Assembly (NCBI GenBank): GCA_964016885.1
Contig: OZ024743.1
Location: 267,530,001 to 267,594,000 of the forward strand
Source: Eledone cirrhosa
Lineage: Eukaryota
Direction of reading: 5' to 3'
Length of the DNA: 64,000 nucleotides
Below are positions 29,106 to 36,387 of this stretch, piece by piece (position 1 is the stretch's first letter; every line of letters starts with the position of its first letter). Position numbers and translations under genes: made by a program. The notes under the pieces are model-generated. The model did no database searches. It worked only from the letters and a program-made list of their open reading frames with translations, and had not been told where the DNA came from.

Positions 29106-29813
29106 TATACATATATATATATATATATATATATATATATACACATATATATATATATATATATATATATATATATATATATATATATATATATATATAT
29201 ATATATATATATATATATATATACATATATTTATACATATACATATATATATATATATATATATATATATATATATATATATATATATATATATATATAT
29301 ATATATATTTATATATATATATATATATACATATATATATATATATATATATACATATATACATATATACATATATACATATATATATATATATATATAT
29401 ATATACATATATATATATATATACATATATACATATATATACATATATACATATATATATATATATATATACATATATATATATATATACATATATATAT
29501 ATATATATATATATATATAAAAACAAATAACGAAACGAAATTAAATTTCGTTTCGTTTGTAACTCACTTTTGTATGACTGACGCTTAAACAATTAAGTTA
29601 AAAAAATGTACATCCACATATGTATACTGAAATACTAGTATGCATATGAATACACACACGTATACATATGTAGATGTACCGAGTTTTTCACTGGTCACTT
29701 TACTGTGAGTGTCCAGCTATTCTGTATGTAAACACACAGACAAACCGGTTTTTAGAGTCATACTGGTTTTTGAGGAAACACCTTTCCTCTATTCTCCAGA
29801 AAGCCAGACAAGG

Positions 29814-29858
29814 AATATTGAACTAGTTTCGATGTTGTTACATCTCATCAGCAATATT
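29814..29858 (-). ncRNA. Minimal type I hammerhead ribozyme (also at 30282, 30750, 31218)
   Basis: Reverse complement of aatattg-CTGATGA-gatg taacaa catc-GAAAC-ta-GTT-caatatt. Confidence 0.85.
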
Positions 29859-31799: not shown

Positions 31800-34700
31800 C
31801 CTTGTCTGGCTTTCTGGAGAATAGAGGAAAGGTGTTTCCTAAAAAACTAGTATGACTCTAAAAACCGGTTTGTCTGTGTGTTTACATACAGAATAGCTGG
31901 ACACTCACAGTAAAGTGACCAGTGAAAAACTCGGTACATCTACATATGTATACGTGTGTGTATTCATATGCATACTAGTATTTCAGTATACATATGTGGA
32001 TGTACATTTTTTTAACTTAATTGTTTAAGCGTCAGTCATACAAAAGTGAGTTACAAACGAAACGAAATTTAATTTCGTTTCGTTATTTGTTTTTATCGTC
32101 TCCGTTGAACCGGTACGTACTCACGCTCTATGCAAATTAGTCTGCCCACTACTAATTTTCATAGAAAAAGCATATAACGATATGTGCTTTTACGATTCTC
32201 TAGAGAGGCCGGAAGATAGGTAAATATTGCTGATGAGATGTAACAACATCGAAACTAGTTCAATATTCCTTGTCTGGCTTTCTGGAGAATAGAGGAAAGG
32301 TGTTTCCTCAAAAACCAGTATGACTCTAAAAACCGGTTTGTCTGTGTGTTTACATACAGAATAGCTGGACACTCACAGTAAAGTGACCAGTGAAAAACTC
32401 GGTACATCTACATATGTATACGTGTGTGTATTCATATGCATACTAGTATTTCAGTATACATATGTGGATGTACATTTTTTTAACTTAATTGTTTAAGCGT
32501 CAGTCATACAAAAGTGAGTTACAAACGAAACGAAATTTAATTTCGTTTCGTTATTTGTTTTTATCGTCTCCGTTGAACCGGTACGTACTCACGCTCTATG
32601 CAAATTAGTCTGCCCACTACTAATTTTCATAGAAAAAGCATATAACGATATGTGCTTTTACGATTCTCTAGAGAGGCCGGAAGATAGGTAAATATTGCTG
32701 ATGAGATGTAACAACATCGAAACTAGTTCAATATTCCTTGTCTGGCTTTCTGGAGAATAGAGGAAAGGTGTTTCCTCAAAAACCAGTATGACTCTAAAAA
32801 CCGGTTTGTCTGTGTGTTTACATACAGAATAGCTGGACACTCACAGTAAAGTGACCAGTGAAAAACTCGGTACATCTACATATGTATACGTGTGTGTATT
32901 CATATGCATACTAGTATTTCAGTATACATATGTGGATGTACATTTTTTTAACTTAATTGTTTAAGCGTCAGTCATACAAAAGTGAGTTACAAACGAAACG
33001 AAATTTAATTTCGTTTCGTTATTTGTTTTTATCGTCTCCGTTGAACCGGTACGTACTCACGCTCTATGCAAATTAGTCTGCCCACTACTAATTTTCATAG
33101 AAAAAGCATATAACGATATGTGCTTTTACGATTCTCTAGAGAGGCCGGAAGATAGGTAAATATTGCTGATGAGATGTAACAACATCGAAACTAGTTCAAT
33201 ATTCCTTGTCTGGCTTTCTGGAGAATAGAGGAAAGGTGTTTCCTCAAAAACCAGTATGACTCTAAAAACCGGTTTGTCTGTGTGTTTACATACAGAATAG
33301 CTGGACACTCACAGTAAAGTGACCAGTGAAAAACTCGGTACATCTACATATGTATACGTGTGTGTATTCATATGCATACTAGTATTTCAGTATACATATG
33401 TGGATGTACATTTTTTTAACTTAATTGTTTAAGCGTCAGTCATACAAAAGTGAGTTACAAACGAAACGAAATTTAATTTCGTTTCGTTATTTGTTTTTAT
33501 CGTCTCCGTTGAACCGGTACGTACTCACGCTCTATGCAAATTAGTCTGCCCACTACTAATTTTCATAGAAAAAGCATATAACGATATGTGCTTTTACGAT
33601 TCTCTAGAGAGGCCGGAAGATAGGTAAATATTGCTGATGAGATGTAACAACATCGAAACTAGTTCAATATTCCTTGTCTGGCTTTCTGGAGAATAGAGGA
33701 AAGGTGTTTCCTCAAAAACCAGTATGACTCTAAAAACCGGTTTGTCTGTGTGTTTACATACAGAATAGCTGGACACTCACAGTAAAGTGACCAGTGAAAA
33801 ACTCGGTACATCTACATATGTATACGTGTGTGTATTCATATGCATACTAGTATTTCAGTATACATATGTGGTTGTACATTTTTTTAACTTAATTGTTTAA
33901 GCGTCAGTCATACAAAAGTGAGTTACAAACGAAACGAAATTTAATTTCGTTTCGTTATTTGTTTTTATCGTCTCCGTTGAACCGGTACGTACTCACGCTC
34001 TATGCAAATTAGTCTGCCCACTACTAATTTTCATAGAAAAAGCATATAACGATATGTGCTTTTACGATTCTCTAGAGAGGCCGGAAGATAGGTAAATATT
34101 GCTGATGAGATGTAACAACATCGAAACTAGTTCAATATTCCTTGTCTGGCTTTCTGGATATAGAGGAAAGGTGTTTCCTCAAAAACCAGTATGACTCTAA
34201 AAACCGGTTTGTCTGTGTGTTTACATACAGAATAGCTGGACACTCACAGTAAAGTGACCAGTGAAAAACTCGGTACATCTACATATGTATACGTGTGTGT
34301 ATTCATATGCATACTAGTATTTCAGTATACATATGTGGGTGTACATTTTTTTAACTTAATTGTTTAAGCGTCAGTCATACAAAAGTGAGTTACAAACGAA
34401 ACGAAATTTAATTTCGTTTCGTTATTTGTTTTTATCGTCTCCGTTGAACCGGTACGTACTCACGCTCTATGCAAATTAGTCTGCCCACTACTAATTTTCA
34501 TAGAAAAAGCATATAACGATATGTGCTTTTACGATTCTCTAGAGAGGCCGGAAGATAGGTAAATATTGCTGATGAGATGTAACAACATCGAAACTAGTTC
34601 AATATTCCTTGTCTGGCTTTCTGGAGAATAGAGGAAAGGTGTTTCCTCAAAAACCAGTATGACTCTAAAAACCGGTTTGTCTGTGTGTTTACATACAGAA

Positions 34701-36387
34701 TAGCTGGACACTCACAGTAAAGTGACCAGTGAAAAACTCGGTACATCTACATATGTATACGTGTGTGTATTCATATGCATACTAGTATTTCAGTATACAT
34801 ATGTGGATGTACATTTTTTTAACTTAATTGTTTAAGCGTCAGTCATACAAAAGTGAGTTACAAACGAAACGAAATTTAATTTCGTTTCGTTATTTGTTTT
34901 TATCGTCTCCGTTGAACCGGTACGTACTCACGCTCTATGCAAATTAGTCTGCCCACTACTAATTTTCATAGAAAAAGCATATAACGATATGTGCTTTTAC
35001 GATTCTCTAGAGAGGCCGGAAGATAGGTAAATATTGCTGATGAGATGTAACAACATCGAAACTAGTTCAATATTCCTTGTCTGGCTTTCTGGAGAATAGA
35101 GGAAAGGTGTTTCCTCAAAAACCAGTATGACTCTAAAAACCGGTTTGTCTGTGTGTTTACATACAGAATAGCTGGACACTCACAGTAAAGTGACCAGTGA
35201 AAAACTCGGTACATCTACATATGTATACGTGTGTGTATTCATATGCATACTAGTATTTCAGTATACATATGTGGATGTACATTTTTTTAACTTAATTGTT
35301 TAAGCGTCAGTCATACAAAAGTGAGTTACAAACGAAACGAAATTTAATTTCGTTTCGTTATTTGTTTTTATCGTCTCCGTTGAACCGGTACGTACTCACG
35401 CTCTATGCAAATTAGTCTGCCCACTACTAATTTTCATAGAAAAAGCATATAACGATATGTGCTTTTACGATTCTCTAGAGAGGCCGGAAGATAGGTAAAT
35501 ATTGCTGATGAGATGTAACAACATCGAAACTAGTTCAATATTCCTTGTCTGGCTTTCTGGAGAATAGAGGAAAGGTGTTTCCTCAAAAACCAGTATGACT
35601 CTAAAAACCGGTTTGTCTGTGTGTTTACATACAGAATAGCTGGACACTCACAGTAAAGTGACCAGTGAAAAACTCGGTACATCTACATATGTATACGTGT
35701 GTGTATTCATATGCATACTAGTATTTCAGTATACATATGTGGATGTACATTTTTTTAACTTAATTGTTTATATATATATATATATACATATATATATATA
35801 TATATATATATACATATATACATATATATATATATATATATATATATATATATATATATATATATATATATATATATATACATAAATATATACATATATA
35901 TATATCTATATATATATGTATATATATATATATATATATATGTATATATGTATATATATATATATATATGTATATATATATATATATACATATATATAAA
36001 TATATAAATATATATATATATATATATGTATATATATATATATATATATATATATATAAATATATAGATATAGATATATAGATATATATATATGTATATA
36101 TATATATATATATATATATATATATATATATATATATATATATATATATATATATAACCAAAGATGTGGCTTCGATTCCCATGTACGTCAATACTCAACT
36201 TTTTCCATTTATCTGAGGATTCCAAACCCCATTATCAGACTAAAATTTCTTTAGTCAGAAATACGGTGAAAGCTTATATATATATATACACATATGTATA
36301 TATGTATATATATATATATATATATATATATTATATATATATATGTATATATTATATCATATTATATAATAATATAATATCATATTA

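Follow-up and report, generated by a model that had tools for sequence, protein, structure and literature searches.

Non-LTR (long terminal repeat) retrozymes are tandem, non-coding repeats with a type I hammerhead ribozyme in each unit, a GC content below 50%, a highly self-paired monomer and, where the target site is duplicated, a long duplication, dispersed in genomes in which Penelope-like elements (PLEs) coexist with them (PMC7229834; 10.64898/2026.07.22.740005), and a model in which they are copied from a circular RNA template has been proposed (PMC4209133; PMC7229834). Their link to PLEs has so far rested on co-occurrence and phylogeny (10.64898/2026.07.22.740005), while the mechanism producing the tandem, inverted and tailed insertions of PLEs themselves is described as still undefined (PMC8557442). 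Here we analyze a stretch of 64,000 nucleotides of the Eledone cirrhosa genome (the window; contig OZ024743.1 of assembly GCA_964016885.1, positions 267,530,001 to 267,594,000, forward strand), which harbors two diverging arrays of a 468-nt hammerhead-bearing unit between (TA)n tracts. This element is a tandem, non-coding and dispersed type I hammerhead repeat with GC content below 50% and fits the definition of a non-LTR retrozyme. Its most informative feature, missed in a preliminary description made from the sequence of the window alone, is a pair of fixed start sites at which the arms end.

Comparison with described systems places the element between retrozymes and PLEs. With 468 nt, its unit exceeds the range of 150-450 bp given for non-LTR retrozymes in PMC7229834 and falls inside the 51-972 bp of 10.64898/2026.07.22.740005; two-armed inverted insertions, two fixed 3' ends and (TA)n targeting, all found here, are not described for retrozymes in the available portions of these two sources, nor is a two-site or inverted retrozyme pattern in those of PMC8969392 and PMC6962438. 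In Schistosoma, hammerhead pairs have been reported on opposite strands, 100-700 bp apart (PMC4209133). The endonuclease-containing (EN+) PLEs Neptune, Naiad and Hydra also form inverted 5'-truncated copies joined at the 5' end, with a one-sided tail, partial tandems and a (TA)n bias (PMC8557442); unlike them, the element here has no open reading frame (ORF), its tail is of about 70 nt instead of 30-40 nt, and both of its arms can be long multimers. The Chlamys elements of green algae, e.g. MRC1, are likewise non-autonomous PLE derivatives inserted as multicopy head-to-tail arrays, but resemble the 3' ends of autonomous elements (PMC8557442), a likeness not found here in 30 PLE loci. In vitro, PAc Poseidon starts reverse transcription (RT) at two internal sites downstream of the hammerhead, which define the tail, and the protein, a predicted dimer, nicks and extends both strands of an AT-rich target (PMC11167929), a geometry that matches the insertions described below. 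The inverted copy, the tail, the two RT start sites and the (TA)n targeting are thus the published signature of PLEs, and the novelty that the preliminary description saw in a two-armed, microsatellite-targeted insertion was overstated, as was that of its circle-copying model, since copying of a circle beyond unit length had already been proposed (PMC4209133; PMC7229834). The kind of element and the retrozyme-PLE link are already known (10.64898/2026.07.22.740005), whereas searches of open-access literature did not turn up the two fixed ends, their strict pairing or loci with mixed arms, nor a PLE tail signature on a retrozyme, a strict one-of-each rule or arms from different RNAs.

Tandem Repeats Finder (TRF) recovered both arrays with a period of 468 (29517-31434, 4.1 copies, 100%; 31449-35770, 9.2 copies, 99%; opposite orientations), flanked on both sides by TA tracts (29106-29519 and 35769-36156). 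The 31-nt hammerhead core is present in 13 copies, nine on the plus and four on the minus strand, GC content is about 35%, and the longest ATG-initiated ORF has 50 amino acids (aa), an ORF combining RT and GIY-YIG domains being absent. All this bears out the architecture first described, including the outward reading of the arms, the near identity of the units (eight of the 11 full units are identical) and the lack of a real ORF. Among the 15 unit pieces of the locus only six unit-private variants and one change in T-run length were seen. The arms diverge, their 5' ends meeting across a 14-nt insert that looks locally templated, as its first 10 nt repeat 31457-31466, and their 3' ends lie at monomer position 304 on the left and 235 on the right (numbering starts at the predicted cut; position 1 is window position 32261).

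The unit is not confined to this locus. Its exact hammerhead core occurs 6,113 times in the 3.0-Gb assembly (control, 0), and ends abutting TA were counted at least 2,269 times at position 304 (site B), at least 682 times at 235 and at least 463 times at 230 (controls, 0), all counts being lower bounds and that at 230 covering one variant of this end. The genome-wide search proposed in the preliminary description yields thousands of TA-flanked insertions and supports a dispersed, retrozyme-type element. Thirty-nine distinct loci were mapped without selection for a TA pattern (20 through the DNA search, 19 through the core list), of which 25 are two-armed, four have a tiny second arm, three have a different PLE as second arm, and seven are single-armed or lie at a gap; two diverging arms are the norm of the family. 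The median length of the sampled arms is 1.8 units, with 73 of 96 longer than one unit (the sample is biased to strong matches), and the nine-unit arm of the window is long but not unique, six of the 96 arms having at least nine units. The window locus is a young insertion of a large family and a long but ordinary member of it. A relaxed pattern detected 29,685 cores of sister families (control, 1), which share 60-67% identity and are also two-armed; sister loci L104, L105, L107 and L109-L114 on C1 have units of 420-500 nt, two arms and the same two-site build. A 32-unit arm (L069, L034 and L035; C1:5738086-5752752) contains quasi-periodic unit variants and is apparently becoming a satellite, and L085 (4620-5260) holds a further two-armed inverted element with a different hammerhead, flanked by TA tracts. 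Beyond the assembly, 20 sequencing runs under 17 organism codes share words with the element; runs X4 and X6 contain short contigs of about 98% identity, while no match came from raw reads X23, which carry the organism code of X4. A search of a phage collection returned no match.

Visible 3' ends of arms fall at positions 230-236 (site A) or 302-305 (site B), about 70 nt apart, the exceptions being L058 and, with an arm that stops at 223 and reaches 235 via a short duplication, L036. Pairing was surveyed in C1 0-118 Mb, a region covered in full by all three end lists (100 B and 49 A ends; neighbors at most 16 kb apart). Diverging pairs comprised 33 A/B, one B/B and no A/A (33 of 34 A/B), and the sole B/B pair (L081) proved to be two separate insertions; a true B/B locus, L045, lies outside this census and carries haplotypes that differ between its arms. 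One short and one long end were likewise found in all seven sister-family loci with both ends in view. The fixed ends are real and the A/B pairing is strict. Given fixed ends and diverging arms, each arm looks like a cDNA that grew from one of the 3' ends at a break, and in the mapped loci both arms behave as such cDNAs, which supports the earlier suggestion that they were primed from both ends of a (TA)n target. In LINE-1 (long interspersed nuclear element 1) twin priming, too, both target ends prime on RNA and the diverging arms are joined at their 5' ends; there, however, the pieces derive from separate, non-overlapping stretches of a single RNA and the second site varies, whereas here the same unit is copied repeatedly from fixed sites. 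PAc Poseidon was reported without a difference in start sites between strands and without one-of-each pairing, unlike the present loci, and its starts are not homologous to the target (PMC11167929), whereas those here share 1-3 nt with (TA)n. The least variable block of the monomer, positions 222-258, in which none of 37 columns varies among 25 units (22-24% in positions 1-221), is likely a protein-binding site.

At least 10 nt of TA adjoin 95 of 98 ends; about half of these loci were picked by TA patterns, and the pattern-free loci agree. The one long target duplication, of 30-45 bp in L157, is as staggered nicks would give; it is clear in one of 49 loci, TA masking the others. An interrupted TA pattern is often common to both flanks (L032, L052, L088, L092, L139, L155 and the window), a hint that the target tract was duplicated or copied iteratively. 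At blunt or overlapping arm junctions, microhomology of at least 3 nt was present in four of seven cases, against 6.5% by chance. Taken with the ends and their pairing, a PLE-driven, two-ended insertion is very probable. That the inversion in the window is instead a fold-back or chimeric-read assembly artefact is extremely improbable: no contig or read in the sequencing runs compared spans 31434-31449 (given as 31433-31449 in the preliminary description), and identical units arranged as a palindrome of 6 kb are difficult to assemble correctly, so that the copy number given for this locus may be inaccurate, but the two arms differ in fixed end site and in flanks, dozens of loci obey the same end rule with different junctions, and short-read contigs of run X1, which may be the source sample, contain 12 other minus-to-plus joints.

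The hammerhead geometry comprises a 7-bp stem I, a 5-bp stem II and a 2-bp palindromic stem III, and the cut after GUU predicted earlier reads directly from the sequence. As modeled, the motif conforms to the canonical type I hammerhead of metazoans, which works as a dimer (PMC4209133), and not to the minimal PLE type assumed in the preliminary description; the minimal form, with no or rudimentary helix III, short helix I and long helix II (PMC4209133), differs from the stems predicted here. An Rfam search of the window element gave no match at gathering threshold, the match to Hammerhead_HH9 (36.5 bits, E=1.7e-7) falling under the 52-bit cut-off. The circular monomer is predicted to fold at -159 kcal/mol (z=-10 against 60 shuffles; the antisense strand also reaches z=-8.7), with stems I and II formed (pair probabilities 0.63-1.0) and stem III not; in a predicted dimer only, the palindromic stem III pairs between two copies at -8.0 kcal/mol. 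Nine of 25 units carry a compensatory A-U to U-A change in stem II. Both sides are changed in six of 142 predicted pairs, and many one-sided changes retain pairing via G-U. All 318 cut triplets counted were GUU, GUC or GUA, with no GUG, under a search pattern that fixed the first letter. Since the units are related by descent, these comparisons lend modest support to selection on the hammerhead RNA.

An autonomous driver was sought with two PLE protein queries and PF01541 against the genome, and 30 PLE loci, sampled from more than 10,000 candidates, were examined for hammerheads and for sequence similarity to the unit. Several autonomous PLE families are present, some of them young with intact ORFs of about 890 aa, and several genomic PLEs carry the CxxxxCxxC linker, a Neptune-type motif (PMC8557442). 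A young Neptune-type PLE (L085, 5387-9820; L092, 566-4134) is two-ended; its 5' copy is inverted, and its two end positions are separated by about 40 nt. An abundant and very young PLE family (L119, L121-L124; 96-98% aa identity, intact ORFs near 887 aa) showed no hammerhead in its 3' region by the pattern used. Relaxed-pattern hammerhead matches, followed as possible drivers, led to sister retrozymes only, and single-hammerhead loci and long gaps between ends, considered as autonomous copies, turned out to be arms of retrozymes or else nested LINEs. Two loci, L043 and L037, combine a retrozyme arm with a hammerhead-bearing element that ends in TA, the two being fused 5'-to-5'; in L043 this partner is a PLE, with coding sequence for RT and GIY-YIG. 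Mixed arms of a similar but less clean kind occur in L053, L094 and the sister locus L113. Such loci could stem from a single event that drew on two RNAs, or from a subsequent insertion by which one arm was lost. A quite different origin, in which a sequence-related autonomous PLE supplied the units as detached pseudo-LTRs (pLTRs) that inserted in short, truncated form and multiplied solely as satellite DNA, follows a route proposed in 10.64898/2026.07.22.740005 and would agree with the short median arm and with the DNA-level duplication observed in some loci. It appears very improbable, as no sampled arm leads, on its upstream side, into a related ORF of matching orientation, most arms exceed one unit, and both arms are often multimeric with one haplotype, which one-sided satellite growth does not predict.

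Our favored explanation as a whole, which we hold to be probable, is that of a non-LTR retrozyme that borrows a PLE RT-endonuclease in trans and is written into (TA)n from a circular 468-nt RNA. The 5' ends of arms show no accumulation at the cut site (5 of 289 crossings, with 3.2 expected by chance, P=0.22; breakpoints are approximate and some lengths estimated), and the template was therefore continuous through the cut, as a circle or an uncleaved multimer. A haplotype test, in which T-run indels at 213-222 were ignored, covered 33 of 37 two-armed loci, leaving out L081 (two insertions), L051 (split by a LINE), L096 (too short) and L083 (mis-split). It revealed 292 variants fixed in both arms, 152 singletons and two position-matched variants; 21 of the 292, spread over 10 loci, are private to one sampled locus, and L068 consists of 21 identical unit pieces. 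Variants fixed in both arms, with few position-matched, fit a single-monomer template. The earlier idea that a single 468-nt monomer was copied is accordingly favored in most loci, a few pointing to a mixed multimer.

Several observations weigh against this explanation. In L042, L143 and L149 the two arms share variants with matching unit index, a pattern that copying of a monomer circle cannot yield, and the arms of L044 and L045 carry different haplotypes. Fixed haplotypes would likewise result from a source array that is young and homogeneous. In vitro, a PLE was found to use mainly uncleaved RNA (PMC11167929), and only one of nine Xenopus dimers was cleaved (10.64898/2026.07.22.740005). 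No autonomous PLE with a pLTR related to the unit was present among the 30 PLE loci examined, the double-sided structural changes are few and shared by descent, and 11 of 24 junctions were lost to anchor failure, with inserts in six of the remaining 13. The same element and PLE two-site priming could thus have operated on an uncleaved linear multimer, with long arrays regenerated by DNA-level duplication and the hammerhead a passenger or later-acting. Besides the in vitro substrate preference and the position-matched variants, block duplications of four to six units in L083 and L084 and the mixed units of the 32-unit C1 array speak for it. We nevertheless regard it as unlikely, since arrays contain 152 unit-private singletons, older ones having many, yet matched series are nearly absent in daughters (two in 33 loci); many distinct haplotypes are each fixed over both arms; the closest long array, that of 32 units, is heterogeneous whereas the window array is homogeneous; and the hammerhead core is conserved, with a compensatory change. 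With respect to the template itself, the variant pattern probably points to circular RNA as the main one, and most of the remaining probability falls to the uncleaved multimer.

Under the trans-mobilized circle explanation, arrays would be transcribed as multimers, which the hammerheads may cleave chiefly when dimerized via the palindromic stem III, the monomers then being ligated to circles, by analogy with the systems of PMC4209133 and PMC7229834. The conserved tail block would be bound by a PLE protein, for which a dimeric state is predicted (PMC11167929) and which would nick both (TA)n strands. Extension would begin at site B (304) for one DNA end and at site A (230/235) for the other, a priming step suggested by the observed ends and their pairing. 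Copying would pass the ribozyme site repeatedly without stopping there, as the distribution of 5' ends indicates, the two cDNA ends would be joined by microhomology or a short templated insert, in line with the junctions, and some arrays would later grow by the DNA-level block duplication seen in other loci. More tentatively, and with considerable doubt, a dimeric PLE enzyme might engage one active site per fixed position on the circular ribozyme RNA, rolling from both ends of a staggered (TA)n break and sometimes loading two different RNAs, which would fuse a retrozyme and an unrelated PLE in a single event.

The coordinates of the locus are compiled in Table 1. Next to it, an RTE-type LINE (RT and C2H2 fingers; 27524-29105, minus strand) is interrupted such that the left TA tract stands in place of its 5' part; no continuation was found right of the array by motif search. 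The window also contains two degenerate PLE fragments on the plus strand, one (4824-5294) a GIY-YIG end that resembles the PLE arm of L043 and the other (5949-6993) a Neptune-like RT with more than 8,000 genomic candidates. Another short repeat lies within TA tracts at 1592-2014 and 52206-52689, and also in L085 near 3887-4060.

Table 1. Features of the two-armed retrozyme insertion and its (TA)n target, in window coordinates
Feature	Position	Strand	Basis
Left (TA)n target tract	29106..29516	.	sequence, TRF, flank analysis
Left arm, 4.10 units; 5' start at monomer 259, 3' end at 304 (site B, tail-extended)	29517..31434	-	
14-nt junction insert; first 10 nt repeat 31457-31466	31435..31448	.	sequence
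Right arm, 9.24 units; 5' start near monomer 126, 3' end at 235 (site A)	31449..35770	+	
First plus-strand type I hammerhead; stem I 31755-61 with 31793-99, core from 31762, predicted cut 31792/31793	31755..31799	+	
Other hammerheads: 8 more on plus; 4 on minus, core starts 31255, 30787, 30319, 29851			
Complete 468-nt monomer between successive cut sites; the most frequent unit	32261..32728	+	
Tail region, monomer 222-304, with site A (230/235) and site B (304)	32482..32564	+	
Right (TA)n target tract	35771..36156	.	sequence, TRF, flank analysis

A retrozyme that itself bears the PLE insertion signature, in thousands of young copies and under a strict end rule, makes the PLE mechanism testable. 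The invariant 37-nt block offers a defined substrate for an in vitro assay, and a genome-wide haplotype census could separate circle from multimer and one RNA from two. If the dimeric-enzyme rolling model is true, it would account for the tails and inverted copies that characterize all PLEs, and the genome would record the reaction of such an enzyme in thousands of young insertions. For the genome of E. cirrhosa, the more than 35,000 related hammerhead cores make these families a notable source of palindromes.

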